This document shows, in pieces, positions 12,659-57,580 of a stretch of DNA of 64,000 nucleotides (position 1 is the first letter of the stretch; each line of letters starts with the position of its first letter). The position numbers were made by a program, and so were the translations under genes. The notes under the pieces were generated by a model that did not search any database, was not told the DNA's origin, and saw only the letters and a list, made by a program, of their open reading frames with translations. The DNA lies in the NCBI GenBank assembly GCA_050115675.1, contig JASFQB010000001.1:96616-160615 (forward strand), written 5' to 3'. Origin of the DNA: Candidatus Woesebacteria bacterium. GTDB taxonomy: Bacteria > Patescibacteriota > Saccharimonadia > Saccharimonadales > EFPC-124.

Positions 12659-12765
12659 CCGTATTATTGAAGCCCGCTTGATCTAAGCGGGCTTTTTAAA
12701 CTGGTAATAAAAGTCTTAGCGGTGTAAAATTATAGTATACTTAAACTAGTAAATGGGTAGGCAGT

Positions 12766-13656
12766 ATGACTGACGTAATTATTGGCGTAAAAGGTCTTAT
12801 TAAAGATTTTGGACACAATCGGGCACTAAACAATTTGGATCTAACTGTTCATGCAGGTGAGGTCCATGGTTTTTTGGGTCCAAATGGCGCCGGCAAATCA
12901 ACGACTATTCGTATTTTGTTGGGAATGCTACATAAAAATGCAGGCGAGGTGCAACTTTTGGGTAAAGACCCGTGGCGTGACGCAGTAGAGTTGCATAAAC
13001 ACTTGGCCTACGTGCCGGGAGATGTAAGTCTTTGGCCAAATCTGTCTGGCGGAGAAGCTATCGATTTGCTTGGCAGGCTGCGTGGTGGGCCGGTAACTGC
13101 ACGGCGCCAAGAGTTAATTGATCGTTTTAATCTTGATCCTACTAAAAAATGCGGCACGTACTCTAAGGGTAATCGCCAAAAAGTTGCAATTATTGCAGCA
13201 TTGGCGTCTGATGTAGATTTGTATTTGCTGGATGAGCCTACATCTGGCCTTGATCCCCTAATGCAAGCTGTTTTTAACGAATATGTAACCCAGTTGCGTC
13301 ACGAAGGTAAAACCATCTTATTGTCCAGTCATATATTAGCTGAGGTTGACACGCTCTGTGACGAAGTAACAATTATCAAAGAGGGTAAAGATATTATCTC
13401 TGACAAGCTTTCGTCGTTGCGACACATGACTTACTCTACGGTTACTGTTCAAACAAAAAAACCAATTACAGGTTTAAACAAAATGCCCGATGTTTCTGAT
13501 GTTACGGTGAATGGCGATCATACTACATTTAGGGTAAAAAACGGCGGGCTAAGTGCAGCGCTTACGCATGTTGCCAAATTTGGTATGCATAGTATTTACA
13601 GCGCTCCGCCAACTCTAGAGCAATTATTTATGCGACACTACGAGGAAGCTGAATAA
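12766..13656 (+). CDS. ABC transporter ATP-binding protein.
   Basis: Walker A GPNGAGKST, signature LSGGEA, Walker B LYLLDEPTSGLD. Confidence 0.9.
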   Translation: MTDVIIGVKGLIKDFGHNRALNNLDLTVHAGEVHGFLGPNGAGKSTTIRILLGMLHKNAGEVQLLGKDPWRDAVELHKHLAYVPGDVSLWPNLSGGEAIDLLGRLRGGPVTARRQELIDRFNLDPTKKCGTYSKGNRQKVAIIAALASDVDLYLLDEPTSGLDPLMQAVFNEYVTQLRHEGKTILLSSHILAEVDTLCDEVTIIKEGKDIISDKLSSLRHMTYSTVTVQTKKPITGLNKMPDVSDVTVNGDHTTFRVKNGGLSAALTHVAKFGMHSIYSAPPTLEQLFMRHYEEAE

Positions 13657-15853: not shown

Positions 15854-17653
15854 ATGGAGGCTCTAAAGCCAAGCGATCCGACCAGGATTGGTCCTTACGA
15901 GGTTGAGGGCGTTGTTGGTCGGGGCGGAATGGGCATTGTCTATTATTGTACAAGGGGCGCTACAGCAGTTGCCGTAAAAGTCATTAATCCAAATCTGAAT
16001 TACGATCTTGAAGCGCGTAGGCGTTTTAGGCGAGAAATTGTTGCAGCAAAGAAAGTTGGGGGCAATTGTGTTGCAAAGGTTGTTGATGAAGGCTCAGATC
16101 AGGGGATGCTCTGGTATGCCAGCGAGTTCATTGAGGGAGTAACCCTGCATCAGGCTGTAGCTCTAGAACGTTTTAACGATGATGCGTTCTCTAACCTCGT
16201 CCGTGGGCTGTGCAAGTCTTTGCGTGAGATCCACGGTTCGGGTATTGTGCATCGTGATCTAAAGCCGACAAATATTATGATTGGTCCGCGCGGTGCTGTA
16301 GTATTAGACTTTGGTATCTCTCATATTTTGGGAGGAACGGCAATTACGGCAACTGGCGAGGTGATTGGCACTGCCAATTATATGTCGCCTGAGCATTTTG
16401 GTATTGGACAAGTTAGTCAAGCGAGTGATATTTTTGCATTGGGTAGTGTTTTGGTTTTTGCTGCTACCGGAAGGCCAGCTTTTGGTAATCACCAAACTCT
16501 GGCTACGGCGATGCGCGCCATTTTGGATGATCCGCCTGACTTGCGCGGCGTATCTGGACTAGCGCGCAAGATTATTGAACTTTGTTTGCAGAAAGATCCA
16601 GCAAGACGTGCTACGCTAGACCAAGTCGAGGCGCTTTTGCCCGCTGCCAAAACGGTTGTTTTGGGCAATGCCGAATGGCTGCCGCCAACTGTTAAGCAGC
16701 GGGTACTGGCGTCAACAAAGGCCTATCCAAAACCTCAGGCTACGCGCGTTGCGCCAAGTTTAGCCGTATCCGTCGTGCCAGATCAGTCGCGGGATGGGAG
16801 TGCGGATCAGACGAATGGGCGAAGTAACGCAGATAATGATGAAATTAGCACAACTGCTGTCGCCATTGCTTCTATTGTTACATTAGCTCTTATTGTAAGC
16901 GCAGTCTGGTTTGTTGTTAGACCAGCCGGCTGGGCTGATCAGATTAGGGCAAATTCGCTTTTAGGAGATCTTCCGCAAGTAGAGTTTGTACCCAAAGAGT
17001 CTGGCTTGATTGATGCTGGTTCTGGCAGAACAATTGCCGTAATCAGTGCAGAATCTGTAGGTTATAATCTCTTGATTAAGGCGTCATTTGAAGGTTACGA
17101 TGTTCCTGGCGCGGCAGCTGCCGCAAATGCGCTGTGTGCTGCAACAAGCTATCGCGGCGAAGACGAAATAATTAAGTACGAAGGCAGCACTTCGTTGGCT
17201 GACCCCGTTTTTGTTATGAGCGACGGCAGTATGCAGGTAAGTGTTGTTTTTAGCGCGGCATTGACGCTTTCTTCCAAGGTCTGGATTGGTCAAGAGTGTG
17301 ATTTTAGCCAACGTCTTAATGTTGGTTATAATTACTATCAAAGCAGCCATGACACAATGGTTCTTACAAATCAAGGGCAGTCTGTGCCTGTACTTTTGCT
17401 TAGTGACGAAATGTTTGTCGTGCCAAGTGGTGCGGACGGCTACTACTACAAAGCCCACAACTCGGATGGATCGACAGAGATTGTTGTTCCACAAAAAATA
17501 ATCACTAAAAGTAAGGGCAATGTAGATTTTGATGTTTATCTAGCGAATGAAGGCGTAACAGAACCGTGGCTTTGTCTTAAGCGAGAAGCTGATAAAAGCC
17601 CGGAATCGTCCTGTAGTGCGACATTGGTAACAACGCATAATCCAGTTGAGTAA
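15854..17653 (+). CDS. Ser/Thr protein kinase with a TM helix and an extracellular C-terminal domain.
   Basis: Gly-loop GRGGMGIVY, VAVK, catalytic HRDLKPTNIM, DFGIS, TM segment at about residue 340. Confidence 0.85.
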   Translation: MEALKPSDPTRIGPYEVEGVVGRGGMGIVYYCTRGATAVAVKVINPNLNYDLEARRRFRREIVAAKKVGGNCVAKVVDEGSDQGMLWYASEFIEGVTLHQAVALERFNDDAFSNLVRGLCKSLREIHGSGIVHRDLKPTNIMIGPRGAVVLDFGISHILGGTAITATGEVIGTANYMSPEHFGIGQVSQASDIFALGSVLVFAATGRPAFGNHQTLATAMRAILDDPPDLRGVSGLARKIIELCLQKDPARRATLDQVEALLPAAKTVVLGNAEWLPPTVKQRVLASTKAYPKPQATRVAPSLAVSVVPDQSRDGSADQTNGRSNADNDEISTTAVAIASIVTLALIVSAVWFVVRPAGWADQIRANSLLGDLPQVEFVPKESGLIDAGSGRTIAVISAESVGYNLLIKASFEGYDVPGAAAAANALCAATSYRGEDEIIKYEGSTSLADPVFVMSDGSMQVSVVFSAALTLSSKVWIGQECDFSQRLNVGYNYYQSSHDTMVLTNQGQSVPVLLLSDEMFVVPSGADGYYYKAHNSDGSTEIVVPQKIITKSKGNVDFDVYLANEGVTEPWLCLKREADKSPESSCSATLVTTHNPVE

Positions 17654-32484: not shown

Positions 32485-32862
32485 TTATTTTTTAGATTTA
32501 GAAATTGCTTCTTTTATCTTTTTGACCACTTGGCTAGGTGTTAGGTCTGCTTTGACTATGTAAGATTGTACGTGTAGGCCGTCTAAAGATGATGGGGCTT
32601 CTTCTTCGCCTAGATTTGTTAAAACTAACACGGGAATGTCGCGACCCCAGGGTTGTTTACGAATAAGCGCAAGGGCTTCGGCGCCAGACATTTTGGGCAT
32701 TCTAAGGTCAAGTAAAATTACATCTGGTAGTATTTTTTCTACCAGGGCAACGCCTAGCTCGCCGTTTTCGGCAATTTGTACCTCAAAACCTTCGGCTTCG
32801 AACTTCATGCGATACATTTGCGAAATGACTGGGTCGTCTTCGATAATTGCAATGCGAGTCAT
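32485..32862 (-). CDS. Single-domain response-regulator receiver (CheY-like).
   Basis: Conserved residues in IAIIEDD, LLDLRMPKMSG and PVLVLT. Confidence 0.75.
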   Translation of the reverse strand: MTRIAIIEDDPVISQMYRMKFEAEGFEVQIAENGELGVALVEKILPDVILLDLRMPKMSGAEALALIRKQPWGRDIPVLVLTNLGEEEAPSSLDGLHVQSYIVKADLTPSQVVKKIKEAISKSKK

Positions 32863-32930: not shown

Positions 32931-33194
32931 TTAAAAATCTGGCAGGTTGTCTAGGTTATCTGTGCCTGTTTCGTCTGGCTCGCTGCGTAAATACATGCCG
33001 TCTTTTACGCCTGGATCATGAACTACTATTACCTCAATATCGTCGCCGGTTCCGCTGGTTGTTGTGTATGTTTGTGCGCCACTTTCAATATCTTGAATGG
33101 CTTCCATCTTTGTAGCCATGCCCCAGCTGCCTTTGATGGCGGTAATGTCGCCATCATTATCTTTTCTAGTGTGAGTGATAAGTCTTGTGCTCAT
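32931..33194 (-). CDS. DUF3892-like small protein.
   Basis: Pattern DITAIKGSWG...TYTTTSG..IEVIVVHDPGVKDGMYLRSEPDETGTDNLDNLP matches the DUF3892 fold family. Confidence 0.45.
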   Translation of the reverse strand: MSTRLITHTRKDNDGDITAIKGSWGMATKMEAIQDIESGAQTYTTTSGTGDDIEVIVVHDPGVKDGMYLRSEPDETGTDNLDNLPDF

Positions 33195-33329
33195 ATCTTC
33201 CTTGCTAAGTTAGTTAATCCTATAAATATAGTATCAAGCTTGTAGATGATCTATCAAATGAGCGTTACTGCCTATTTACTTTTTGTATTGATAGTGTTAT
33301 ATTTTTGACATAAGGTCAATTTTACCATC

Positions 33330-34838
33330 ATGACACCTATATCACCTTGGCCTAAATTTTACGAAGACCCGAATCGTTTGATTCAGGACTTGAACAAAGT
33401 GCCTGAACAAACTTGGCGCGAGCGAGCAGAGCAATCTGCCCTCGCGCTTTTTTGTTCTGCGTCCAGTAGAGTTCCGGCCTATAAAAAATTTTTAAAAACC
33501 AATGGCGTTGACCCTAAAAAAGTCAAAACAATAGCAGATTTTGCCAAGCTGCCGCACATTACTAAAGAAAACTATTTGCGCCAGTATCCATTGGCCGAAT
33601 TGGCATGGGATGGCAAGATCGGCAGCGCAAGTATGGTAAATCGCAGTTCTGGCTCTAGTGGTCAGCCGTTTTATTGGCCAAGCGATCAAAGTCAGCGCAA
33701 CGAAGTTGGCGCGGCTTATGACATTGTTTTTAGCCAAATGTTTGGCATGCGTCAGTTAAAAACCTTGGTTATTATTGCTTATGGCATGGGAAGTTGGGTT
33801 GCTGGCACGACCACGCTTTTGTCATCTATAGAATATATGAACAAATATGACTGCATGTTTATCACTCCTGGTTACAATAAAAACGAGGTGATAGAAATTT
33901 GCAAAAACCTTGGTCCAAATTTTGATCAGGTGGTTATTTGCGCATACCCACCTTTAATAAAAGAAATAATTGATGCAGGTGAGGACGTGGGCATTGACTG
34001 GCCAAAGTTAAGTCCAAAGTTTATCTTTGGCGCAGAGGCTTTTGGCGAGGAATTTAGAGATTATATTTTAGAGCAAGTGGGGTCGAATAATCCGTTTTTG
34101 GACACTATGAATACAATTGGCTCGGCCGATGCCATGATTATTGGTCACGAAACTCCAATTTCTATTGCTTTGCGCAGAATGATTCATGCTAGTCCAAAGT
34201 TTCATGACCAGGTCTTGGGTAGCGGGCGCATGCCAACTTTGGCTCAGTACTATCCTTGGCAAAAATATTTACAGGTTGAGGATAGCGAGCTTTTAATAAC
34301 CAGCAATGGCGCAATACCTTTGATAAGATACAATATTCATGATAATGCAAAAGTGTTTACCTATGGTGAGCTGGACGAAATCGCCAAAACATATGGTCAC
34401 GAAGGAATTGTCGAGGCTTTGCCTGCAAATTTGCGCTATAGATACAATTGGCAGCTGCCTTTTGTGTTGCTTTACGGAAAAAGCACAAACGCACTGAAGT
34501 TTTATGGGGCCATTGTATATCCCGAAAACGTAAAAGCTGCACTAGAAAAACCGGCTTGGGCGCATTACTTTACGGGTAAGTTTAAGATGGAAAAATACTA
34601 TGACGCTAGGCAAAGTCAGCGTTTACGCTTGCATTTAGAACTGTCTCCTGGGGCTGTGACAGATGAGGTTGATATAAAATCATTGCAAAAAAACATTGTA
34701 GAAACGCTGTGCGAGATGAACAGCGAGTATAGGTCATCTTATCGCGACACGGGGAGTAAGGCGATTCCGGCAGTTAAGCTAATCAATTATGGTCAATTCG
34801 AGCTTAACAACAACAATAATAAGCATAGGTATGTGTAA
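33330..34838 (+). CDS. Adenylate-forming enzyme of the phenylacetate-CoA ligase / CapK / F390-synthetase family.
   Basis: P-loop-like SSGSSGQPF (like SSGTTGKP of PaaK), about 500 aa with a two-subdomain layout. Confidence 0.6.
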   Translation: MTPISPWPKFYEDPNRLIQDLNKVPEQTWRERAEQSALALFCSASSRVPAYKKFLKTNGVDPKKVKTIADFAKLPHITKENYLRQYPLAELAWDGKIGSASMVNRSSGSSGQPFYWPSDQSQRNEVGAAYDIVFSQMFGMRQLKTLVIIAYGMGSWVAGTTTLLSSIEYMNKYDCMFITPGYNKNEVIEICKNLGPNFDQVVICAYPPLIKEIIDAGEDVGIDWPKLSPKFIFGAEAFGEEFRDYILEQVGSNNPFLDTMNTIGSADAMIIGHETPISIALRRMIHASPKFHDQVLGSGRMPTLAQYYPWQKYLQVEDSELLITSNGAIPLIRYNIHDNAKVFTYGELDEIAKTYGHEGIVEALPANLRYRYNWQLPFVLLYGKSTNALKFYGAIVYPENVKAALEKPAWAHYFTGKFKMEKYYDARQSQRLRLHLELSPGAVTDEVDIKSLQKNIVETLCEMNSEYRSSYRDTGSKAIPAVKLINYGQFELNNNNNKHRYV

Positions 34839-35995
34839 TGTTAAAAACTTCTTTAGTGCCATTTTGGCAGTCACCTAAAATATTGTCTGTAAAAACAGAA
34901 GATGATTTTGCCGAGGTACAAAAACTTTACGATAGTGGTCAAGTGAGGCAGTTTTTTGACTCGGCAGAGCTTGCTATAAACGAACTTTACGACATTTCTT
35001 ACCCAGAGCAAAAAGATCTTCCAAAAAGCCAAAAAACAAATTACGACAATTTTGCAAAAAAATATTTATGGCCAAAAGGTGACTTTGTATTTTATCAGCA
35101 CAATGGATTGCTGGTAAGATTTTTAGGTTGTGAAGAACTTAGGGCGCTGCGCACTTCGCGTAATCGTAATTTAATTACAAGGCAAGAGCAAGATAAGCTT
35201 TACAGATCAAAAATTTTTGTTGCAGGTATGAGTGTGGGTAGTAATATTGTAGAATCGCTAGTAACGAGCGGTGTTGGTGGGTGTCTGGCTCTGGCGGATA
35301 TGGATATAATAGAACCTAGCAATTTAAATAGAATCCGTGTGCCATATTGGCACGTTGGAATGCATAAATGCGACTCTGTCGCAATTAGAATGAACGAAAT
35401 TGATCCGTACTTGCATTTTGATTTGCATAAAAAGGGCATAGACATGCAAAATATCAGGCAAATCATAGAAGAATCCAAGCCAGACATAATTGTTGACGAA
35501 GTAGACCAAATCCAAGTTAAAATTGCTTTGCGTCGTTTAGCAAAACAAAAAAGGATTGCTGTTGTTTCTGCGGCAGATGACGGTGACGATGCGTTGCTTG
35601 ATATCGAGCGTTACGACACCGATGCTGATTTGCCAATTTTTAATGGCTTGGTTCCAGAAGATGTTGTAAGAGGGCTCGAGGATGCAAACGACATGCCGCG
35701 GCAACAACTTGGTTTGTTGATTGGTAAATATTTTGTTGGCTCAAAAAACATACCATTGCGCATGTTTGAGTCGTTGGGTGAGGTTGGCAAAACGTTACCA
35801 AGTTGGCCGCAGCTGGGGAGTGCCGCAACTCAATCTGGCCTAGCGGTCGCATACGCGTGCAGAAAGATTTTATTAAATCAGCCAATTAAAGCAGGCAGAT
35901 CTGTAATAGGTTGCGACGCGGCTCTTTTCAGTGATAAAAGCGATTCAAAAAAACTAAAGATCTACCAAGATCAGTTGGATAAGTTTAAATTCTAG
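34838..35995 (+). CDS. ThiF/MoeB/E1-like adenylyltransferase-fold protein with an N-terminal extension of about 130 aa.
   Basis: Rossmann IFVAGMSVGSNIVESLVTSGVGGCLALADMDIIEPSNLNRI. Overlapping stop/start (TAATG) with the upstream gene. Confidence 0.6.
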   Translation: MLKTSLVPFWQSPKILSVKTEDDFAEVQKLYDSGQVRQFFDSAELAINELYDISYPEQKDLPKSQKTNYDNFAKKYLWPKGDFVFYQHNGLLVRFLGCEELRALRTSRNRNLITRQEQDKLYRSKIFVAGMSVGSNIVESLVTSGVGGCLALADMDIIEPSNLNRIRVPYWHVGMHKCDSVAIRMNEIDPYLHFDLHKKGIDMQNIRQIIEESKPDIIVDEVDQIQVKIALRRLAKQKRIAVVSAADDGDDALLDIERYDTDADLPIFNGLVPEDVVRGLEDANDMPRQQLGLLIGKYFVGSKNIPLRMFESLGEVGKTLPSWPQLGSAATQSGLAVAYACRKILLNQPIKAGRSVIGCDAALFSDKSDSKKLKIYQDQLDKFKF

Positions 35996-36060
35996 AACCC
36001 TCACTGTTTTCAGTGAGGGTAAGTGCTTAGCTTCTTGAGTCAAATTTTTTATCAGTTAAG

Positions 36061-36899
36061 CTATTTGGCAATTGTCAAAACATTGCTTGACAATAATCTG
36101 GGAGCGCGTGGCATCTGTTTTTTTGCCTTCCCAATGCGCACAAGAGCCACGGGTAATTCTGAAGTGCCAAATGCATTTTGTAGAATTTCTCTGCTGGGGG
36201 GATATTCTATTGATGCGCCCAGCACGGTTGCGTCTAGTTGATTGTGTGAAACATGCAAAAGTAGATTTTGCAAGGTTCTTCCCGCTTGTATCCAATGCAA
36301 AATGTCGTCTTCGTCTGTGCAAATTAGCGCCAATATTGGCGCATTAGATAGGTTTTTTTGATCTTTTTTTGCTTGAGAAATTTGAATTGGGAGGTTTTTT
36401 ATTAGTGTTTTTGCAACAATCGAAACGGGTCCAGGTATGCCCTGAATTGCTGCGGGCATACCAGTATACTGACTTGTCCAATTTGGGTGAACCCACATAG
36501 AGAGTTCGTGTCTAAACTGTTTTGTCATTAAGCTCTTAACTGCTAAGTTTGCTGCTTGGCCAACTTTTTGTTTAGATTTTTGTCGGTTATAAGATGAATT
36601 GAGGCGCCATCGATCTCTAGCTGTTTTGCGGGTAGTAGTTTGTTTATGGCGATGGATCTTTTGTGATAATTGCTGTGATTGCACTGTCTTGATGTAAGCT
36701 GACAGAGTTGCTTTTTATTGGGCCATTTTACAGATATCTTTGCAATTGGTTGTTTTTTGGTTTGTAGCTTTATTCTATATTCAATTTTGTAAGCGTCTGC
36801 CGCTAATGCAATGTTTTGAATTGCCGCACCAATGCTTAGATAGGCCTGGCGCATTACCTTGTCTGACACGGGCAATGTTCGACTGGACTCTAAAGACAC
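36061..36899 (-). pseudogene. Nitroreductase-family gene split into two overlapping frames (36543..36899 and 36061..36684). Possibly frameshifted.
   Basis: Both pieces carry nitroreductase-like C-terminal motifs (SIGAAIQNIALAADAY; AGRTLQNLLLHVSHNQLDATVLG). The two ORFs overlap by about 140 nt in different frames. Confidence 0.35.
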
Positions 36900-37084
36900 G
36901 TAAATTGTTGAGAATTTTTTATCTATTTTAAACTTCCAGGGCTGTGCATTGTGTGCAGATGGAGCAATTAGTGCGTAGCCGATCTTTGTTGTTTATTTTT
37001 GACAAATCTTCAGGGGTGATCTGCCATGCTTTATGATTAGGTTTCACTTTAGTCTAATCCTTACTATAATAAAAGTATTCAATT

Positions 37085-39229
37085 ATGCTTTTGCTTTTTG
37101 TAACAATTCTGGCATTGTCCGCTCAAATACTCTTGGCTTTGGTTGTGCTACTTAAAGACAGCTCTAGCCTGCGCAATAGGGCGTTTGGATTGCTGTCGAT
37201 GGCGCTACTTATTTGGGCCGCCTTAAATTATTACGATGCAATCCCTGGCATGCCGCATGATATCTATGTTATCCGTTCTATCATGTTTTTTGCTGTACTG
37301 CAAAACATTTTCTTTGTTTTATTTAGCTTCTCTTTAAAAAATAAGCCACTAAAGTTTGGGCTGCGGTTTTGGGCTTATGGATTAATTAGCATAATTGCGG
37401 GAACCATGTGCTATACGCCGTTTATGTTTTCGGAGGTGGGTGTGGGTGGCTACCCTGTTGCGCAGCCTGGGATGCTAGCGTTTTTGATTCATGCAATTGT
37501 GTCAGTTGCTGCTGGCTTTAAGAGTGTTGTTGGCGAATACAAAAAGTCTGTAGGGGTGTACCGCAGGCAATTGTTGTATATCCTACTAGCTTCTGTGGTT
37601 TTGTGGGGAATTGTGCCGCTAACTAATTTTGTTTTGTCTATGACCTTAAGAACTGCTGTATTTTCTGCTGTTAGTCCGTTGTATTCGTTTGTTTTTTCTA
37701 CTTTAATCGCTTATGCAATTATTAGGCATCGTTTATTTGATATTAGACTGGCGATTGCCAGGGCTTTAACGTATCTTTTGCTGTTTGCAACTTTGGTTTT
37801 GGGCTACGCACTAATGGTGTTTGGGATAATTCAGCTGTTTTTTGCAGACCAATCTGGCATAACTCCAGAGCAAAACGCCATTTATATTGCTGCTGCTTTG
37901 TTTTTGGCAGTAACATACGAGCCTTTAAAGCGCTTTTTTAGGCGCTGGACAAACAAGGTTTTCTTTCAGGATGCTTACGACACCAAGTACGTAATAGATC
38001 AAGTGACTTCTGTTTTGGTGCGTGCATCTGGCCTAAGCGATATTTCTAGGCAGTCGCTTGAAGTACTTACTGCGTATTTAAAGGTAGAGTGTGCTGCTGT
38101 AATTATTCCTGATGGAGATGAATTTCCGCAAGGGCGAATCGTAATAGTCGGTCATAAAAAAGTTGATTACAACGATATACTGCAAAAACTGCCGAAAAGG
38201 CTAGCTAGCGTAACGTTAATAGACGATTTTAGCAATCCCGAAAGTCAAACCTACAAACTAATGCGCCTTTATAATATTGCAGCGTGCGTGCGCTTAGAAA
38301 GCTCTAAAGAGCAAATTGGCTACATGATGCTCGGGTTTAAGCAAAACGGTCATGCGTACACCAACCAAGATGTAGAGCTGATTAGAATTGTGGCGGACGA
38401 GTTGGCTGTGGCGGTTCAAAATACGCTGCGTTTTGAAAAGATTGCGGCCTTTAATCAAACTCTTCAACAAGAAATAGAAGATTCTACAAAACAGCTGCGC
38501 GCCAACAACAAAAAACTGCAAGAGCTAGACGAAGCAAAAGATGAGTTTATCAGCATGGCCTCACATCAATTGCGTACGCCGCTTACGAGTGTTAAAGGCT
38601 ACCTGTCAATGGCGTTAGAGGGCGATGCTGGTGAATTAAAGCCAGGTCAAAAAAAGCTGATAGAAGAAGCCTACAGCAGTGCTCAGCGTATGGTTTACAT
38701 GATTTCTGACTTTTTAAACATTTCGCGCATTAAAACAGGTAAGTTTGTTTTAGAACGCGAAACTGTGCGCTTACCTCAACTTATAAAAGAAGAGCTGCCA
38801 CAGATAGAGTCTACGGCAAAGTCGCGTGGCATAACAGTAAACGTGTTTTTGCCAGAGCACTTTCCGGCTTTGCGTCTTGACGAGAACAAGATTCGCCAAG
38901 TGATAATGAATTTTATGGATAACGCTACGTTTTATTCAAATAGTGGCGGCAACATAGACATCGAGCTTACTCAAGATGGTAAAGACGTGATGTTTACAGT
39001 AAAAGACGATGGTATTGGTGTGCCAGACAAAGAACAAGCAAAAATATTTACCAAGTTCTTTAGAGCTTCAAATGCGCGTCATATGCGCCCTGACGGCACG
39101 GGTCTTGGGCTGTTTATGGCCAAAAAAGTCATAACCGCGCACGATGGCGAACTAGTATTTAAAACAGCAGAAAACAAAGGCAGTACGTTTGGGTTTAGGC
39201 TGCCAATTGGGCCAAATAAGGCAAGGTAA
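37085..39229 (+). CDS. Sensor histidine kinase with an N-terminal multi-TM sensor, a GAF-like domain, HisKA and HATPase_c.
   Basis: About 7 N-terminal TM helices, a GAF-like region, H-box MASHQLRTPLTSVKGY and a G-box GTGLGL. Confidence 0.85.
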   Translation: MLLLFVTILALSAQILLALVVLLKDSSSLRNRAFGLLSMALLIWAALNYYDAIPGMPHDIYVIRSIMFFAVLQNIFFVLFSFSLKNKPLKFGLRFWAYGLISIIAGTMCYTPFMFSEVGVGGYPVAQPGMLAFLIHAIVSVAAGFKSVVGEYKKSVGVYRRQLLYILLASVVLWGIVPLTNFVLSMTLRTAVFSAVSPLYSFVFSTLIAYAIIRHRLFDIRLAIARALTYLLLFATLVLGYALMVFGIIQLFFADQSGITPEQNAIYIAAALFLAVTYEPLKRFFRRWTNKVFFQDAYDTKYVIDQVTSVLVRASGLSDISRQSLEVLTAYLKVECAAVIIPDGDEFPQGRIVIVGHKKVDYNDILQKLPKRLASVTLIDDFSNPESQTYKLMRLYNIAACVRLESSKEQIGYMMLGFKQNGHAYTNQDVELIRIVADELAVAVQNTLRFEKIAAFNQTLQQEIEDSTKQLRANNKKLQELDEAKDEFISMASHQLRTPLTSVKGYLSMALEGDAGELKPGQKKLIEEAYSSAQRMVYMISDFLNISRIKTGKFVLERETVRLPQLIKEELPQIESTAKSRGITVNVFLPEHFPALRLDENKIRQVIMNFMDNATFYSNSGGNIDIELTQDGKDVMFTVKDDGIGVPDKEQAKIFTKFFRASNARHMRPDGTGLGLFMAKKVITAHDGELVFKTAENKGSTFGFRLPIGPNKAR

Positions 39230-49363: not shown

Positions 49364-49665
49364 CCTCTTTCGTGTATGACGAAAAGACTGTTATATAAAA
49401 ACATGAAATTGTAAAAAAGTAAACCCCTTGCTGCAAGATGACAAGGGGCAGGTTGTTCTACTCTGGCGGGATACCTCCGATTGCCATCATAAGCTGTGTA
49501 AATCGGTATACAATGGCATCTTCGCGACTTGTTGGAGTATCGCTTGGCTCGTTGCTTTGCGTGGTTGGCGGGTTTGTGTTTTGGTCGGCTTGATCTTGGT
49601 TGGCCTTGACCTGCTGCGCCATGGTTTTTCCTTTCGCCCGAAAGAACTGTTTTATAATACAACAC

Positions 49666-50970
49666 ATGACACGTAAAGCAAAAGTTTTTGCATTAGTAGA
49701 TTGCAATAACTTTTTTGTAAGCTGCGAACGAGTTTTTAGGCCAGACTTGTGGAACAAGCCCGTGGCTGTTTTAAGTTGCAATGATGGCTGCATTGTGGCG
49801 CGCAGCAACGAGGTAAAACAAATTGGAATTCCTATGGGTTCGCCTTTGTTTAAGGTTAAAGATGTTGTGGCTGCAAACAATATAACTTTGTTTTCGGGCA
49901 ATTTTGCTTTGTATGGTGATTTTTCGCAACGAGTGGTGCAAATTCTGCAATCTGCCTGCCCTGATGTTGAGGTGTACTCTGTTGATGAGTCGTTTTTAGA
50001 GATTTCTGCTTTAAATATTGATAATTATCACGATTGGGCAGCAAAACTCAGAGCGAACATTTTGCAATGGACAGGCATACCTGTATCAATAGGGGTGGCG
50101 CCTACAAAAACTTTGGCAAAGGCGGCCGCCGAATTTGCTAAAAAGACTTTTTTGCCAGATGGCGTGCATGTTTTGTGTAGTGACGGGCAAATTTCGCCTA
50201 CCGAGGCTAAAAAGCGCCATGATGATCTTTTAAGATGGCTGCCGATAGATGATGTGTGGGGTGTGGGGCGCAGGCTGGCTCCAGTTTTGCGGCAAAAGGG
50301 CATATCTACGGCCCAGCATTTAACAGAGGTGGGCGATAAATGGGCTCAGCAGCAGCTAAGTATATCTGGTGCCAGGACTGTGTGTGAGCTAAGGGGTGAG
50401 TCGTGCATTCCAATGACAAAACAAGAGCCTCAAAAAACTATAGCCAGCACAAGATCTTTTGGTCATACCGTGCGTAATTATTACGAATTAGAAGGAGCGA
50501 TCGCTACTTACGCAGCTCAGGCAGCGGCAAAGTTGCGTAATCAAAACAGTGTTGTAAGTGCGATTTTGGTGTTTTTGCGAACAAGTAAAAAATACGACAA
50601 AAAATATGGTGCTAGTATTGTTGTGCAAATACAGCAGCCTAGTGCAGACACAGGGGCAATTATTGGTGCCGCATTGAGCGGTTTGGCCTCTATTTACGAT
50701 AAAGATTTAGCATATAAAAAGGGTGGAATCGTGCTGTTGGATTTAGCGCCTGCGACTGCATGGCAGATGTCTTTATTGGATCAAAATCCAAGTAAAATTG
50801 ACCAGCAAGTTGCATTGATGAGCGCCGTAGATACACTAAACCAAAAATACGGCGTGCGTCTTGTGCAACATGCTAGCGAACAGATTGCCGGAAAAAGTTG
50901 GCAAAGCAAGTCGCAGCTGTGTAGCCCTGCGTACACCACAAATTGGCTCGCATTACCAAAAGTTGGGTAA
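49666..50970 (+). CDS. umuC: Y-family DNA polymerase (UmuC/DinB-like).
   Basis: FALVDCNNFFVSCERVFRPDLWNKPVAVLSCNDGCIVARSNE...IGIPMG (palm catalytic Asp/Glu motifs), SVDESFLE. Confidence 0.85.
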   Translation: MTRKAKVFALVDCNNFFVSCERVFRPDLWNKPVAVLSCNDGCIVARSNEVKQIGIPMGSPLFKVKDVVAANNITLFSGNFALYGDFSQRVVQILQSACPDVEVYSVDESFLEISALNIDNYHDWAAKLRANILQWTGIPVSIGVAPTKTLAKAAAEFAKKTFLPDGVHVLCSDGQISPTEAKKRHDDLLRWLPIDDVWGVGRRLAPVLRQKGISTAQHLTEVGDKWAQQQLSISGARTVCELRGESCIPMTKQEPQKTIASTRSFGHTVRNYYELEGAIATYAAQAAAKLRNQNSVVSAILVFLRTSKKYDKKYGASIVVQIQQPSADTGAIIGAALSGLASIYDKDLAYKKGGIVLLDLAPATAWQMSLLDQNPSKIDQQVALMSAVDTLNQKYGVRLVQHASEQIAGKSWQSKSQLCSPAYTTNWLALPKVG

Positions 50971-51624: not shown

Positions 51625-51700
51625 GGCCCCTTCGTCTAGTGGTTAGGACATCAGGTTTTCATCCTGAAGATCGCGGGTTCGAGTCCCGCAGGGGTCACCA
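51625..51700 (+). tRNA. tRNA-Glu (anticodon TTC at 51658-51660).
   Basis: Acceptor GGCCCCT/AGGGGTC, anticodon stem tcagg/cctga with loop ttttcat, T-arm GCGGGTTCGAGTCCCGC, encoded CCA. Confidence 0.85.
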
Positions 51701-53249
51701 TAAGAGAATTTTTTGCTTCCAGTAATTGGAAGACCGGCGACACCCCTGTAAAAAGGGGTGTTTTTTGATTTCGACCAACCAAATCTGCATAGGTTGGTAA
51801 TGTACGGAAAATCAGGCCGAAAAACTGGGCTTTTTTGACCGGGTCAATCTGTTTTACGACCAGTTCATCCAAGTTTTCGACGAAATATTTTACGCGGGCA
51901 ATTACCCGGTCTATACTCATTGGCTTCTTAGCTTCCATCTTCATCCTTTCGAGTGACAGCTGCTTAATTTGTTTATCTACGTCCTCTAGCTCTTCATTTA
52001 GGTGCTGCTGAGCCGAAGGGGCGATTGTAGCGAAGTTTTTGGCCATGCTGCGAGCCTGCTGCGTAAGGTCATTGATCTTACTGTCGATTACGGCGATTTG
52101 CGCATCATGATATGCCACACGCTTTTCATAAGCATCTTTAATGGCAACGAACAGCGTGTCGATGTCTTGCTGCGAAAATTCCAAACCGCCAACAAATTCT
52201 AGCACGCGCATTTCGAGCTCTTCTTTTTTAACGCGGAACTTATGTTCGCGCTTGTCGCAGTGGTAATACGAATAGTAATTGCCGGTTTTGCCGCGAGAGG
52301 CACTGCCAAGCAGTGGCTTGTTGCATTCCGGGCACATTACAAAATTCTTGAATGCAAAGTCCGAGTGGCGCGTGCCTTTTGGCGTGGCATTTTCCGGCGC
52401 TACATTATCCGTAATCGCAATCTTGTTGTTGGGCATTTCTATAATTACTCGCTTGCCCTTGTTGGCGCGGTTGAATAGGTCGATTGAAACAATCCCATCA
52501 AACATACATTTAACCGGCTGGCCTTGTGTCCATTTCTCGACATTTATGCCTGCATAGATTGGATTGCGTACCATTTTCCAGAGCTTCTTTTCGTCCAGCA
52601 GGGCTGGCTCGGTTCGCCTAACAATGCGCGACCTGTCGTCTTTTGCGCGGCGTAGCTGCGGCCGTCCGCGATAACCCATATCGTTCAACTTCTTGGCAAT
52701 CTCGCGGTCGCTAAATTGGCCGCTGGCACGAAGTTCAAATAGCGCAACAATGTATTTAGCTTCCTGCGGGTGCGGCTTTAATACCATACGCTTGCCGTGT
52801 TGTGTTTCTACTTTTTCGCTCACTAGGCCATACGGTGCGCGCCGCATCCAATAGCCCATTTGCGTGTAGCGGATTTCGGCACCAATGACGCGGCTCAAAA
52901 TATCTCGCACTTCGTCTTTTGACCGTTCGGCTTCCAGCATTTCCGATTTGCGGCTTGGTGAGTATTTGCTCCATTTGTATTCCTGCCCGAGGTGCGCCAG
53001 TGTGTTGACCTGCTCGTGGCTAATGACGCCATAGGTATCAACGAGCGTCACGCGGCATTCTTCTTTGCTGGCCGATTCCAAGAACACAAAGAACTTTTTG
53101 ATGGTGATTCCCCGGTTATCGGCGTAGCGTTCGATCTGCTCTTTTTGCGCTTCCGGCGAGTCGCCGTCGGTGCCTTGCTTGGTGGTCGAAACACGAATCG
53201 CGGCAACTGCATACTTACTATTTTGTGGCTGCATTTTCTCCCTCCTCAA
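51651..53249 (-). CDS. Large serine recombinase (phage-integrase type).
   Basis: N-terminal resolvase catalytic domain (AVAAIRVSTTKQ), recombinase domain, zinc ribbon (CPECNKPL...YYHCDKREHK) and a coiled-coil. The last ~16 codons overlap the 3' half of tRNA-Glu. Confidence 0.85.
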   Translation of the reverse strand: MRREKMQPQNSKYAVAAIRVSTTKQGTDGDSPEAQKEQIERYADNRGITIKKFFVFLESASKEECRVTLVDTYGVISHEQVNTLAHLGQEYKWSKYSPSRKSEMLEAERSKDEVRDILSRVIGAEIRYTQMGYWMRRAPYGLVSEKVETQHGKRMVLKPHPQEAKYIVALFELRASGQFSDREIAKKLNDMGYRGRPQLRRAKDDRSRIVRRTEPALLDEKKLWKMVRNPIYAGINVEKWTQGQPVKCMFDGIVSIDLFNRANKGKRVIIEMPNNKIAITDNVAPENATPKGTRHSDFAFKNFVMCPECNKPLLGSASRGKTGNYYSYYHCDKREHKFRVKKEELEMRVLEFVGGLEFSQQDIDTLFVAIKDAYEKRVAYHDAQIAVIDSKINDLTQQARSMAKNFATIAPSAQQHLNEELEDVDKQIKQLSLERMKMEAKKPMSIDRVIARVKYFVENLDELVVKQIDPVKKAQFFGLIFRTLPTYADLVGRNQKTPLFTGVSPVFQLLEAKNSLMVTPAGLEPAIFRMKT

Positions 53250-53383
53250 AGATCATGTCCAGTAGTATGTCGGCCAGAATTTCCAGCTTTTCACCATCTC
53301 CAAGACCGACAATCTCAGGTAATTCTGGCTGATTATTTTGTGACCCTCTTGCTGTGCTCATAGAAGTAAACTAGCTTTTATAG

Positions 53384-53399
53384 TTATAGTATACTATAA
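53384..53399. repeat. Perfect 16-bp palindrome TTATAGTATACTATAA in the AT-rich gap.
   Basis: Read directly from the sequence. Lies between the recombinase and the Replic_Relax gene. Confidence 0.6.
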
Positions 53400-53737
53400 C
53401 AAATAGAGATAGTTAAAGCGTTTTAGGGCACTATTTACACCCTTGCGGGCTAGGGTGTAAATGCAACTATTTCTAATCTGTTAGCGCTTGTTTTTCCGTG
53501 TTACCTATCTTATAAATATATGGGTAGGTGGGGTTGGTTGGAATTGTATGTGCCCATTATACCTGCATACTTAAAACTATACCAAGAACAAAAGCTAAGA
53601 CAGAGAAAATAAAGAACCTAAAGAAGAAAACTAATAACCATGCTTAAAGAACAACTAACTCTGAACCTACCTACTAATACCTATCTAAGAATACGCATAC
53701 TAACAAACTGACGAATAAACGTAAATGTAATCCGTAC

Positions 53738-54667
53738 ATGACGAAATTACCAAAACTAACCAGAAAACAAGGCGAAATACTAGAACTGCTCTACAGGTTC
53801 AGATTCCTAAACCGCATCCAGATACAAGCACTACTACTGCACAAAGACCCGAAAACCATTAACCTGTGGTTGCGTGATCTGCGCTCCAAAGGCTACGTCG
53901 AATGGATATACTCAACCCACTTCGCCGAGAAGACCAAACCAGCTGTCTACTACCTCGGACTAAACGGTGTACGATATCTGCGTACGCTTACTAGGGAGGA
54001 AGAAGTAACGGGCGACGATCCAGAGACCGACGAGGGCGGCGACCCTAAGCCTACACCAGCCTACCCGCCAGAAGAACTGCGCAAACGCTACAAAGAGCCA
54101 ACCCGCAGTCAAACCTATATTGACCGCTGCATCCTGATAGCAGACTGCGTACTTGCTCTAGACCAAGCGAGCTTTGACAACCGGATGCAAGGCAAAAGGC
54201 TCAGCTATTACATTCAGACAGAAGCAGACTACTTGCTTGAACGCAGCTACTACCATTTTGTACTGGATATTGACGACGAACTAATCCACCCGCACCTTTT
54301 GTTTTGCCAGGACAAAACAAACAAAGACGGCGAGGAAATAACCCTAGAAAGCTATATCCTGGAAGTATTTGATCCAACCCTGCCGCGCTACCGTATGAAA
54401 AAGCGCCTTGGTGATTACGTGAAGTTCCTGGATGACGAGGGTGACACGTGGAAAGAGCAGACGGATACCGACAAGCTGCCAGTTATCCTATTTGTCTACC
54501 CCCGAACAACTGACCTCATTTATGCGAAACGAAGAACACGAAAACTCGTTGCCGACGCGTGGTATTGGGAGGATGACGACACCGAAAGGCCACGGGTGCG
54601 GTTTACGACGATGGAGAAGTTGAAACAAAGCGGCTTGTTAGCGAAGGAGATTTGGGAGCAAGCCTGA
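53738..54667 (+). CDS. Replication-relaxation (Replic_Relax) family protein.
   Basis: N-terminal wHTH LTRKQGEILELLYRFRFLNRIQIQALL...LRDLRSKGYVE typical of PF13814. Confidence 0.55.
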   Translation: MTKLPKLTRKQGEILELLYRFRFLNRIQIQALLLHKDPKTINLWLRDLRSKGYVEWIYSTHFAEKTKPAVYYLGLNGVRYLRTLTREEEVTGDDPETDEGGDPKPTPAYPPEELRKRYKEPTRSQTYIDRCILIADCVLALDQASFDNRMQGKRLSYYIQTEADYLLERSYYHFVLDIDDELIHPHLLFCQDKTNKDGEEITLESYILEVFDPTLPRYRMKKRLGDYVKFLDDEGDTWKEQTDTDKLPVILFVYPRTTDLIYAKRRTRKLVADAWYWEDDDTERPRVRFTTMEKLKQSGLLAKEIWEQA

Positions 54668-54786
54668 CTGTCCGCCTCCGCGTCTTTTATCTGGCCGAGA
54701 GCTATTGTAACTACCCCCCCATCCTGTACAATAGAAACCATAAGCGTAGAATAGATATGAGTGTACGAAGGTAATAGAAAAACGGT

Positions 54787-56316
54787 ATGTCACGGCTTCC
54801 GCAACCTGGTGCAGATGATGGTGTTTGGGGTGATGTCCTCAACGACTTTTTAGGCGTATCCCACAATAGTGACGGTACGCTTAAAAGCAGTGCCCTGTCT
54901 TCCAAGGCAAATGACACAGCCACCGTACACAACACAGGCAATGAGTCCATAGCCGGAGTAAAGACCTTCACCTCCAGCCCTGTAGTTCCTACCCCCACAA
55001 CCAACACCCAAGCAGCTAACAAACAGTACGTAGACAATACAGTATCTGCCGGTGCGCCAGACGCCACTACGTCCGCACCAGGCCTAATACAACTAGCCGG
55101 TGACCTAGGCGGCAGCGGCACCATAGCAACTGCCCCTGTCATATCCGACAGCGCAGTAACAACCAGCAAGATAACCAACGGCGCCGTCACCACAGCCAAG
55201 CTGGCTACTGGCAGCGTAACTACCAACGAGATAGCCGACGGCACCATAACAGACACCGACATTAGTGCCACGGCCGCCATAGCCAAAACCAAACTGGCAA
55301 GCCTAAACATCACAGATAGTGATGTAAGCGCTATATCCGAAAGCAAAGTTACCAACCTGACAACCGACCTAGCAGGCAAAGAACCAACGATCACTGCCGG
55401 CACCACTGCTCAGTACTACCGTGGCGACAAATCGTGGCAAACCCTGGATAAAACAGCCGTAGACCTAGCCAATGTAGACAATACCAGCGATGCAAACAAA
55501 CCAGTTTCTACCGCCACCCAAACAGCCTTAGACGCCAAGCTGGACTACGCCACCGCCCCCACCGGCTACATTCGCGTGCCCGGCAACCCCAAGTTCGGTA
55601 CCACTGACTTCTATGTCATGAAGCACGAAGCCAAGAACGTCGGCGGCGTACCTACCTCCCAGGCAGCCAGTACGCCATGGGGCAGTATCTCCCAGGCCAG
55701 TGCCATAGACGCAGCTAGAAGCCTTGGCCCGGGCTACCACCTGATAACCGAGGCCGAATGGATGACCATTGCTTACAACGCCCTGTACGTAGGCAGCAAC
55801 TGGACCGGCGGCAGTGTTGGCTCAGGAGCGCTCTTCTCCGGCCATAACGACAACAACCCGGGCAACGCGCTTGACGCTGATACCAACGACGCCAACGGCT
55901 ACTACGGTACTGGCAACGTGAGCCCCAGCAACCAGCGCCGGACATTAACCCTCAGCAACGGAGAGGTCATCTGGGATCTAGCCGGTAACGTCTGGGAATG
56001 GACTGATGCCCAGATCATTGGCAGCGACCAGCCGACTGTTGCCAGCCCCGGTTTTGCCTGGCGCGAGTTTACCGCCATTACCAAGTGGGGAGCGCTGAAC
56101 TATGCCCTGCCTACGGGCAGAGGCTGGAACTCCAGCCAAGGCCTCGGCCAGATCTATTCCGACGGCACCAGCACCAATACGACGCTGTACGGCTTCATCC
56201 GCGGCGGCGGCTGGGGCCAAGGCAGCGACGCGGGCGCGTTTTCGCTCTACTTGAACCACACGCCGTCGTTCACGCACGCGGCCGTCGGGTTCCGGGTTGC
56301 CAGGAGTATTCTGTAA
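54787..56316 (+). CDS. DGR target protein: tail-fibre-like N-terminus with a C-terminal FGE-sulfatase / C-type-lectin-fold domain carrying the variable region.
   Basis: N-terminus paralogous to 11476..11994. C-terminus GYHLITEAEW..NVWEWT..RGGGWGQGSDAGAF..GFRVARSIL is an FGE/CLec fold. The last 118 bp match the TR with adenine-specific differences. Confidence 0.8.
   Translation: MSRLPQPGADDGVWGDVLNDFLGVSHNSDGTLKSSALSSKANDTATVHNTGNESIAGVKTFTSSPVVPTPTTNTQAANKQYVDNTVSAGAPDATTSAPGLIQLAGDLGGSGTIATAPVISDSAVTTSKITNGAVTTAKLATGSVTTNEIADGTITDTDISATAAIAKTKLASLNITDSDVSAISESKVTNLTTDLAGKEPTITAGTTAQYYRGDKSWQTLDKTAVDLANVDNTSDANKPVSTATQTALDAKLDYATAPTGYIRVPGNPKFGTTDFYVMKHEAKNVGGVPTSQAASTPWGSISQASAIDAARSLGPGYHLITEAEWMTIAYNALYVGSNWTGGSVGSGALFSGHNDNNPGNALDADTNDANGYYGTGNVSPSNQRRTLTLSNGEVIWDLAGNVWEWTDAQIIGSDQPTVASPGFAWREFTAITKWGALNYALPTGRGWNSSQGLGQIYSDGTSTNTTLYGFIRGGGWGQGSDAGAFSLYLNHTPSFTHAAVGFRVARSIL
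56189..56306 (+). repeat. DGR variable region (VR).
   Basis: 118-bp alignment to 57463..57580 shows 19 mismatches, of which 16 fall at TR adenines. Confidence 0.8.
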
Positions 56317-56345
56317 TCTATGCCGCGAATAAGGGGAAGAGTATC

Positions 56346-57360
56346 ATGACGAAACAAATGTCTGAGAGCATGCATCTTCAGCGCGCGGAGCGCGCATCCT
56401 CGTTGTTCGACCAAGTTGCCAGCTTTGAAAACCTCTACGCCGCGTACCAGGCGGCGGCCCGCGGCAAGCACGACCGGGTCGCTACGCTACGCCACGATTT
56501 GCATGCCGAAAAGATTTTGTGGCGGTTACGCTGGGAGCTACTGAATGGCCGGTACCGCCACGGCAAGTACCGGCGGTTTACGATTGTCGAGCCCAAGGCG
56601 AGGGATGTTAGCGCCGCACCGTTTACCGACCGCATCGTTCACCATGCGGTTGTCCAAGTGGTAGAACCGCTATTTGAGCGCGGCTTTATATATGACAGCT
56701 ATGCTTGCCGCCGCAGGAAAGGCACGCACCAGGCGGCTTTGCGGTTGCAGCATTTTCTGCGCTCTGCATCAACATCTATTGGTCATACAGGACGGTTGTA
56801 TGTGCTTCGTGCCGATATCCGGAAGTTTTTTGCCCGTATTGACCACGACGTGCTCAAGGATATATTGCGCCGCAAGCTCCCCGATGCCCGATTGCGGGAG
56901 CTATTGGGCCTGATTATTGATTCATTCTCCGAGATTGTGCCGCAAACGCCGCAGGCGGAATCCTCTCTCTCGATCTGAACGCGGCTTGCCGATAGACAAC
57001 CTTACCTCGCAGCTTCTTGCTAACTTGTACCTCAACGAGCTCGACCAGTTCGCAAAGCATACATTGCGATCACGCTATTACATACGGTATATGGATGATT
57101 TTATTATCCTGCACCCGGACAAAAGGTATCTTCGAGAGGTGTTGGCATCTTTACACCAGTATGTTAACCAAAATTTGCGGCTTGAGTTACATTTCAAGAA
57201 GACCAATATTCATCCATTTTGTGACTACGAGCGTTTTGTGGGTTACGAACTAGGCTTGTATCACCGGCGGCTGGCCAGGCCGACAGTACAGCGTTTTCGG
57301 CGGCGGTATAAGAGGCTGCAACTCCGCGACCCCGCTGCCGCCGATGACAGTTTGGCTTAG
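56346..57360 (+). CDS. DGR reverse transcriptase. Its frame is broken near 56961-56978 (frame 0 -> frame +1) at a (TC)4 tract.
   Basis: RT motifs EPKARDVSAAPFTDRIVHHA, DGR-specific LPIDNLTSQ (I/LGxxxSQ), YMDDFIIL. RBS aagggga upstream. The first part ends at TGA 56976-78 and the RT continues in the 56917..57360 frame. Confidence 0.8.
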
Positions 57361-57462
57361 TTTACCGCTTACGCCCATTTTGCCCATGCCGATGGATTAC
57401 TGCGGACGTTTCGGACCAGAGAGGGCCGACCATAGATATGCACAAGAAAGAGATAAATAACC

Positions 57463-57580
57463 ACGGTTTCATCCGCGGCGGCAACTGGAACAACGGCAGC
57501 AACGCGGGTGCGTTTACGCTCAACTTGAACAACACGCCGTCGAACACGAACACGAACATCGGGTTCCGGGTTGCCAGGAG
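57463..57580 (+). repeat. DGR template repeat (TR), AAC-codon-rich.
   Basis: TR reads ...aac tgg aac aac ggc agc aac..aac ttg aac aac..aac acg aac acg aac atc ggg ttc cgg gtt gcc agg ag. VR differs almost only where TR has A. Confidence 0.8.

Follow-up and report, generated by a model that had tools for sequence, protein, structure and literature searches.

What do two adenylating enzymes of different folds make together when their genes overlap and lie beside genes for a flavin-dependent oxidase and a sensor kinase? The question is raised by a 64-kb stretch of DNA from a Candidatus Woesebacteria bacterium (contig JASFQB010000001.1), hereafter the window, in which a gene for a PaaK-fold ligase runs directly into a gene for a ThiF-like protein. 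We found that these genes belong to a cluster conserved mainly in Patescibacteria. Our preferred answer, to which we give a probability of roughly one-half, is that the cluster encodes a ligase-fed oxazolone-type pathway, in which an amino acid and an acid derived from an aromatic amino acid would be joined into a small molecule.

A conserved and partly fused gene cluster

The cluster and its immediate surroundings in the window comprise the following features (ORF, open reading frame; aa, amino acids; 7TM, seven-transmembrane).

32485..32862, minus strand: response regulator consisting of a stand-alone receiver domain (Pfam Response_reg, 4.8e-19)
32931-33194, minus strand: DUF3892 ORF of 87 aa, between the response regulator and the ligase
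33275..33303, plus strand: promoter-like site (consensus scan)
33330..34838, plus strand: PaaK-fold adenylate-forming ligase of 502 aa (ORF, structure model, motifs)
34838..35995, plus strand: ThiF-like protein of 385 aa (NCBIfam NF005901 match)
35997..36020, unstranded: hairpin between the ThiF and oxidase genes (read from the sequence)
36061..37047, minus strand: Acg-type flavin-dependent oxidase (nitroreductase superfamily), pseudogene (tblastn, DNA alignment)
37085..39229, plus strand: sensor histidine kinase of 714 aa, HisKA_7TM-HisKA-HATPase_c (Pfam)

The stop codon of the ligase gene (TAA) and the start codon of the ThiF gene (ATG) overlap by one base (gtgTAATGtta). The first-pass annotation, made from the sequence alone, had reported translational coupling through this TAATG overlap and two different adenylate-forming folds, and both observations stand. 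The two ORFs are real genes under purifying selection. Their orthologs in the closest relative, locus L083, are 90% (ligase) and 78% (ThiF) identical, and the ratios of nonsynonymous to synonymous substitution rates (dN/dS) against L083 are 0.06 for the ligase, 0.12 for ThiF and 0.05 for the kinase. The same organism was also assembled a second time (L088; Logan, run SRR11713588), and this assembly agrees with the window at every position of 13,158 nt, oxidase lesions included, although it probably derives from the same sample as the window assembly and is only partially independent of it.

A scan for ligase relatives, with one genome per species, yielded 485 loci, the best 80 of which were kept. 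ORFs were called and clustered in these 80 loci and in L001, L002 and the window, and the ligase ORF was recovered in 81 loci. Loci in which a ThiF gene lay at most five genes away from the ligase gene, or was fused to it, were defined as linked. By this definition, 41 of the 81 loci were linked. Full-length orthologs of the 7TM kinase adjoined the ligase or ThiF gene in 37 of the 41 (two of the four exceptions were contig ends) and were also found beside the cluster in L083-L087. A response regulator ortholog lay no more than five genes from the ligase in 20 of the 41 linked loci, as opposed to 1 of the 40 unlinked ones. An Acg-type oxidase gene was present in 28 linked loci, and 22 contained an aminotransferase, a ScyB-like dehydrogenase or a NAD-binding epimerase-like protein. 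Methyltransferases and alpha/beta hydrolases were occasional.

Four gene orders and both orientations were seen, with arrangements such as ligase>ThiF>oxidase<kinase>, oxidase>ThiF>ligase>kinase>, ThiF>ligase>oxidase>kinase> and ligase>oxidase>ThiF>. Four additional contexts found from the ThiF side read aminotransferase< ThiF> ligase> oxidase< kinase>. Such variation in order and orientation favors functional linkage over inherited synteny. Several cluster genes were also found fused.

P0081, 879 aa: ThiF-ligase fusion
P0302, 863 aa: ligase-ThiF fusion
P0317, 1242 aa: fusion of a ScyB-like Trp/ELFV dehydrogenase, ligase and ThiF
P0327, 1010 aa: fusion of ThiF, oxidase and alpha/beta hydrolase
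P0247, 654 aa: ThiF-hydrolase fusion
P0350, 924 aa: fusion of ThiF and an aromatic amino-acid ammonia-lyase/aminomutase of the methylideneimidazolone (MIO) type

These fusion proteins confirm the functional linkage of the cluster genes, and they would predict that the ligase and ThiF form a complex. The first-pass annotation had proposed a check of neighborhood conservation; since the ligase-ThiF pair is co-conserved and even fused, the objection that the two genes might not be co-conserved fails. Its suggestion of a functional tie between the nitroreductase-fold gene and ThiF was likewise borne out, by their co-occurrence in linked loci and by ThiF-oxidase fusions. In four other proteins (P0249, P0300, P0329 and P0361), an unassigned N-terminal domain of ~300 aa precedes ThiF.

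A simpler explanation would be that the two enzymes are housekeeping neighbors by chance, a phenylacetate-coenzyme A (CoA) or capsule (CapK) ligase next to a ThiF or MoeB protein of thiamine or molybdopterin synthesis. The database names, "phenylacetate-CoA ligase" and "molybdopterin/thiamine biosynthesis adenylyltransferase", agree with it, and the first-pass annotation had named it as an outcome that would refute its own reading. We give it almost no credence. It is refuted by the fusions and by co-conservation in variable order, and the scores are far under the equivalog cut-offs: 48.9 bits for the ligase against the PaaK model TIGR02155 (cut-off 646.3; N-terminal half only), and 79 and 61 bits for the ThiF protein against the ThiF and MoeB models (cut-offs 159 and 266). 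No paa genes were found in the window or in related loci, and no capsule, ThiS or MoaD genes lie nearby.

In a neighbor-joining tree, ligases linked to ThiF and the kinase formed one clade and unlinked homologs the other. The closest relatives of the ligase are labeled Saccharibacteria/Saccharimonadales, and the ThiF-like protein shows 100% identity to one that NCBI names from a "Candidatus Woesebacteria" metagenome-assembled genome (MAG); both place the window in a patescibacterial genome. The labels of the linked clade are mostly patescibacterial (Saccharibacteria and Lloyd-, Yanofsky-, Nealson-, Andersen-, Roizman- and Berkelbacteria), together with four MAGs labeled Gammaproteobacteria. 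The unlinked clade carries the labels Methylococcaceae, Pseudonocardiaceae, Chloroflexia, cyanobacteria and Chthonomonadales. Complete clusters occur on five MAG contigs with labels from outside Patescibacteria (L007, L019, L070, L081 and L084; four labeled Gammaproteobacteria and one Binatia), which may be mis-binned patescibacterial contigs or products of horizontal transfer. In five further loci (L016, L037, L039, L040 and L078), a linked-clade ligase lies beside the 7TM kinase, and neither ThiF nor an oxidase is encoded there. Thus, the ligase-kinase pair may be the most persistent core of the cluster. Unlinked ligase homologs in loci labeled Pseudonocardiaceae or Actinomycetota (L044, L055, L056, L060, L062, L066, L069 and L075) have another conserved context, with a beta-lactamase-like secreted protein downstream and, in several loci, a PNPOx-like flavoprotein upstream.

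The ThiF-like protein and the broken oxidase gene

The Pfam scan placed the ThiF domain at residues 107-246, preceded by an N-terminal extension of ~105 aa. The first-pass annotation had recognized this extension but had put its length at 130 aa. The best profile for the protein was NCBIfam NF005901, the "Rv1355c family" (250.6 bits; residues 12-367 aligned with positions 12-343 of 722), and the score falls under the whole-protein cut-off only because the window has the oxidase half in a gene of its own. Searched exhaustively with HMMER, 1.84 billion representatives yielded 801 ThiF relatives at E<1e-30. The nearest of these that were not stand-alone proteins were ThiF-oxidase fusions of 720-760 aa, 37-38% identical, one of which exceeds the Rv1355c cut-off (485 versus 476 bits). 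Judged by these alignments, the protein, extension included, is the N-terminal (cyclase) half of the Rv1355c/TrzS family of oxazolone synthetases. Since the profile alignment begins at position 12, the extension is, on the same grounds, a trait common to the Rv1355c family and no peculiarity of the protein studied here.

Rv1355c is TrzS, which converts N-acyl-Trp to an N-acyl tryptazolone by ATP-dependent cyclization followed by O2-dependent desaturation, the N-acyl-Trp being made by the acyltransferase TrzA (PMC12856293). The same chemistry is carried out on N-acyl-Tyr by TyzA/TyzB/TyzC, in which ThiF and the flavin-dependent oxidase (FDO) are separate proteins (PMC10404671), as are their genes in our cluster. 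The founding example, OxzAB, also uses N-acyl-Tyr (bioRxiv 10.1101/2020.06.11.147165). Clusters of an N-acyl amino acid synthase, ThiF and a nitroreductase, with or without a methyltransferase, lead to N-acyl dehydrotyrosines (PMC12479983). Three traits connect the cluster with OxzAB (Pseudoalteromonas rubra), TyzACB (Rv2336-2338c) and TrzAS (Rv1356c-Rv1355c of M. tuberculosis). Its ThiF-like ATP-dependent cyclase belongs to their family and carries the N-extension; this cyclase is paired with a nitroreductase-superfamily oxidase that depends on flavin and has the tandem, monomeric Acg-like architecture; and the fusions and neighbors point to aromatic amino-acid metabolism.

Residues invariant in 25 homologs of the ThiF-like protein are G130, S132-V133-G134-S135, D154-M-D156, N162-L-N-R165, K177, D220-E221 and D223. 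Its nucleotide-binding and adenylation motifs align with those of solved ThiF-type proteins, the counterpart of TrzS D217 being placed at the level of the motif only. In a Foldseek search, the structure model (predicted local distance difference test [pLDDT] score, 90) matched AclA (9egb), ThiF, MoeB, TcdA, MccB and PaaA. AclA is the closest solved ThiF-type structure, and we found no paper on its function. TcdA, the tRNA ct6A synthase, ranks with the nearest solved proteins in both sequence and structure and is a ThiF-family enzyme that forms an oxazolone via carboxylate adenylation. It differs from the protein described here in that its substrate is tRNA and in having neither an N-extension nor a partner ligase or oxidase.

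Membership in the E1-like family and the constant kinase neighbor would also suit a protein-conjugation or protein-modification system, in which the E1-like enzyme adenylates a protein C terminus, possibly that of the kinase or the regulator. No cysteine is invariant in the alignment of 25 homologs, so that neither a thioester nor a zinc site is conserved. No gene for ThiS, MoaD, a ubiquitin-like protein, E2 or JAB is conserved near the cluster, and the C termini of the kinase and the regulator are not Gly-Gly. We therefore consider the conjugation-like system raised in the first-pass annotation very improbable.

Two overlapping minus-strand ORFs (36061..36684, 207 aa; 36543..36899, 118 aa) lie downstream of the ThiF gene. 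They had been described as a nitroreductase-like gene on the opposite strand, either split or duplicated. Strand, position and split hold; duplication does not, because a single Acg-family profile of 319 positions is matched in succession by the 118-aa ORF (32-153) and the 207-aa ORF (125-316), and the true extent, 36061-37047, reaches 148 nt past the piece then annotated. Against the Acg-family profile NF047509, the two pieces score 92 and 44 bits, out of frame. When the intact 339-aa ortholog of L083 was used as a tblastn query, three pieces were recovered, in frames -2, -3 and -2. Alignment with L083 identified two frameshifting lesions, a 17-bp deletion at ~36983/36984 and a 1-bp deletion in an A-run at ~36577-36581, as well as an in-frame 18-bp deletion at ~36723. 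As a result, the middle 143 codons are out of frame relative to the native GTG start at 37047. The minus-strand ORFs are thus one broken Acg-type flavin oxidase gene, not two genes.

A functional split into two half-domains was considered, since the 1-bp frameshift falls close to where the nitroreductase-like halves meet. A pseudogene is favored because, in the shifted frame, no start codon precedes the APSAHNAQPW motif of the first half. Assembly error is an unlikely origin, given that a 17-bp deletion is atypical of sequencing error and that the second assembly is identical. The inactivation is recent, as the pieces still show a dN/dS of ~0.1 against L083, similar to that of the intact neighbors. 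The gene is intact in 28 of the 41 linked loci and in L083-L087.

Intact orthologs match NF047509 (Acg/Rv3131) end to end with 196.3, 193.5 and 216.7 bits, near the curated cut-off of 199, and the oxidase half of the Rv1355c model with 60-72 bits. The mycobacterial Acg proteins of the DosR regulon (Rv2032/Acg, Rv3127 and Rv3131) are not linked to ThiF, in contrast to the oxidase described here, whose gene is a cluster member.

The oxidase also bears on ribosomal-peptide maturation, in which the E1-like protein would bind or activate a precursor, the nitroreductase-fold enzyme would oxidize azolines and the ligase would tailor the product. The longer Foldseek alignments of the ThiF model to MccB and PaaA (320-347 columns versus ~270 for ThiF and MoeB) speak for it, and the N-extension might overlay the peptide-clamp domain of these proteins, though the root-mean-square deviation is 10-11 Å. 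However, the oxidase is of the Acg type, and no SagB-type model was among the NCBIfam matches of its pieces or of its intact orthologs. YcaO and TfuA were absent from the scanned ORFs and from the precomputed Pfam annotations of L088 and L083, and no unassigned ORF of at least 400 aa lies within 5 kb, in agreement with the earlier remark that no YcaO or precursor was evident. No small ORF (among ORFs of at least 60 aa) is conserved beside the cluster, and the conserved accessory genes encode amino-acid-metabolizing enzymes. The DUF3892 ORF, a candidate substrate peptide, was rejected: tblastn found no match to it in 82 loci, and L083, the 90%-identical relative, also lacks it. These absences indicate a recent insertion outside the cluster. 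We therefore reject peptide maturation as very improbable, and OxzB, TyzB/TyzC and TrzS are the right comparators, not the azoline-forming, SagB-like systems invoked at first.

A proposed ligase-fed pathway and its rivals

The ligase carries the motif SSGSSGQPF and had no match in the Pfam scan; its NCBIfam matches, to PaaK and F390 synthetase, were weak and covered the N-terminal half. Its AlphaFold2 model (pLDDT 86) has a two-domain PaaK fold, and the top 37 Foldseek hits were all PaaK-family ligases, with E values down to 2.5e-22. The best solved matches were PaaK1, PaaK2 and BT_0428 (template-modeling [TM] scores of 0.6-0.69), followed by NatL2, AjiA1, 2-hydroxyisobutyryl-CoA ligase (HCL) and ClxA. 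Residues invariant in 19 homologs are the P-loop S106-S107-G108..G111, R333-Y334..D338 and the C-terminal K498. With the two-domain fold, P-loop, hinge Asp and C-terminal Lys of the PaaK family present, and with these motifs invariant, the ligase should be a competent adenylating enzyme. It shares these features with NatL2, AjiA1 and ClxA of benzoxazole pathways and with PaaK1/2 (TM scores of 0.5-0.69) but is only 13-19% identical to them, is ~70 residues longer, lacks a Pfam match and has another genomic context. NatL2, AjiA1 and ClxA condense the adenylate with a nucleophile without CoA, and a CoA-free direct condensation is, by analogy, plausible for the ligase.

The pathway that we propose would proceed in five steps. 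In many relatives, the aminotransferase, ScyB-like dehydrogenase, NAD-binding enzyme or lyase would supply a 2-oxo or aryl acid or an amino acid. The PaaK-fold ligase would then adenylate the acid and couple it to an amino acid; by producing an N-acyl amino acid in this way, it would stand in for the N-acyl amino acid synthase (OxzA/TyzA/TrzA). By homology to TyzB, TrzS and OxzB, the ThiF-like protein would adenylate the alpha-carboxylate, whereupon the amide oxygen would close a 5(4H)-oxazolone. The Acg-type oxidase, again by homology, would desaturate the C-alpha-C-beta bond, a step lost in the window. Finally, as their adjacency suggests, the 7TM kinase and the single-domain regulator might sense the product or control the pathway.

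Several observations weigh against this scheme. The oxidase is missing from 13 of the 41 linked loci (two of them contig ends and one the window pseudogene), so that either desaturation is dispensable or the chemistry is different. With these losses and the fresh pseudogene, the oxidase is the dispensable member of the cluster. By profile scores, it is closer to Acg/Rv3131, which Grigg et al. placed in group FDO-B, than to the proven desaturases of group FDO-A, which holds the TyzC, TrzS and OxzB domains. The ligase could equally form a CoA thioester for an unlinked acyltransferase; no acyltransferase was found among the Pfam-scanned flanking ORFs or the gene clusters conserved in the 81 loci, though one may lie in another part of the genome. 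In the 64 kb of the window, we found no aminotransferase, dehydrogenase, epimerase-like, methyltransferase or hydrolase partner. Because the window copy has a broken oxidase gene and neither an aminotransferase nor a dehydrogenase partner, it is possibly reduced or decaying: it may yield no more than a labile saturated oxazolone or an N-acyl amino acid, or be on its way to being lost. Lastly, the response regulator has no output domain, and simple transcriptional control is therefore not implied.

The most serious rival, unlikely in our judgment yet well worth considering, keeps the cluster and changes the chemistry. Both adenylating enzymes would activate carboxylates for intermolecular ligation, giving a pseudo-dipeptide, an amide or an ester with no oxazolone as the end product and with the flavoprotein optional. 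The absence of the oxidase from about a quarter of the linked clusters and its FDO-B/Acg type are consistent with such a route, as is the fusion of some ThiF homologs to alpha/beta hydrolases or MIO lyases instead of oxidases. A precedent exists in the stieleriacine-type pathway to N-acyl dehydrotyrosines, where oxazolones were not observed and ThiF was said to have an enigmatic role (PMC12479983). On the other hand, the ThiF-like protein aligns over its full length with the cyclase half, and the characterized members of this family all make oxazolones. Furthermore, TrzS without oxidase activity still yields the saturated oxazolone (PMC12856293). Oxidase loss thus does not exclude cyclization.

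Relative to the literature that we found, the module of ThiF and a flavin oxidase is already known. What is new is the constant PaaK-fold ligase in place of an acyltransferase, together with the Acg-type oxidase, the near-obligate 7TM kinase neighbor and the spread over patescibacterial lineages. In the published oxazolone pathways, the first enzyme is always an N-acyl amino acid synthase (PMC12856293, PMC10404671, PMC12479983), and this enzyme, which uses acyl-CoA or an acyl carrier protein, is absent from the neighborhoods of our cluster. The published systems have FDO-A oxidases and come from Actinomycetota or Proteobacteria, whereas the cluster is mainly patescibacterial, has a co-conserved 7TM histidine kinase and often lacks its FDO-B-like oxidase; in the window, the adjacent oxidase gene is broken by the two frameshifting deletions. 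Neither a PaaK-type ligase nor Patescibacteria nor a linked histidine kinase is mentioned in the oxazolone and ThiF literature that we searched, and a search for this cluster in Patescibacteria found no description. The statement in the first-pass annotation that the ligase-ThiF combination is not a described pathway therefore agrees with the literature searched.

Sensor kinase, surrounding features and implications

The product could be a signal, an aromatic N-acyl amino acid or its oxazolone occurring mainly in Patescibacteria, with the 7TM kinase as its receptor. We regard this reading as doubtful. If it were true, the cluster would represent dedicated small-molecule communication, autoinducer-like or between symbiont and host, conserved across the candidate phyla radiation, and would provide the first substrate context for Acg-type flavoproteins. 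The resemblance of TrzAS products to signaling molecules was noted by the authors of that study (PMC12856293).

The response regulator is 125 aa long as called in L088, and its longest ORF reaches 32898. Beyond it and the DUF3892 ORF, the Pfam scan also found a FolD gene upstream of the ligase. A consensus scan located a promoter-like TTTACT-17-TATATT with a TG, 27 nt upstream of the ligase start, a match that is weak evidence for a promoter. Between the convergent ThiF and oxidase genes, the hairpin ACCCTCACTG-TTTT-CAGTGAGGGT (10-bp stem, 35997-36020) is kept in L083 with a compensatory A-T to G-C change and is probably a bidirectional terminator; it was missed by the consensus terminator scan because it has no T-run. 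In L083, a 131-aa predicted membrane-protein ORF (12696-13091) lies between ThiF and the oxidase. At ~36020-36060 of the window, ~500 bp are gone relative to L083, including this ORF.

Elsewhere in the window, a tRNA-Glu gene (51625-51700) meets, with a slight overlap, the 3' end of a 532-aa ORF with a serine-recombinase domain (51651-53249, minus strand), and a GC-rich stretch at 54-58 kb (0.53-0.56 versus ~0.43 elsewhere) contains a protein with DUF5907 repeats. The region 51625-58000 is possibly an integrated mobile element. Further signaling genes and genes unusual for a small genome lie at 3915-7598, 8938-11475, 15854-17653 and 49600-50970; those listed at these four intervals are a 1,227-aa CHASE-PAS histidine kinase with a PorA-like N terminus, an 845-aa Kelch-repeat protein, a 599-aa Ser/Thr protein kinase and a Y-family (ImpB/UmuC-like) polymerase.

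The interest of these findings lies in the conserved cluster more than in the partly decayed copy of the window. Pathways to oxazolones and N-acyl dehydroamino acids were discovered only between 2020 and 2025. A ligase in place of an acyltransferase would widen the known biosynthetic logic of this chemistry. The Acg-type flavoprotein, kin of proteins of the M. tuberculosis dormancy regulon, gains a pathway context. To our knowledge, Patescibacteria have a minimal metabolism and almost no known specialized metabolites. A cluster retained across their lineages beside a sensor kinase is a testable lead on sensing or signaling in these episymbionts.

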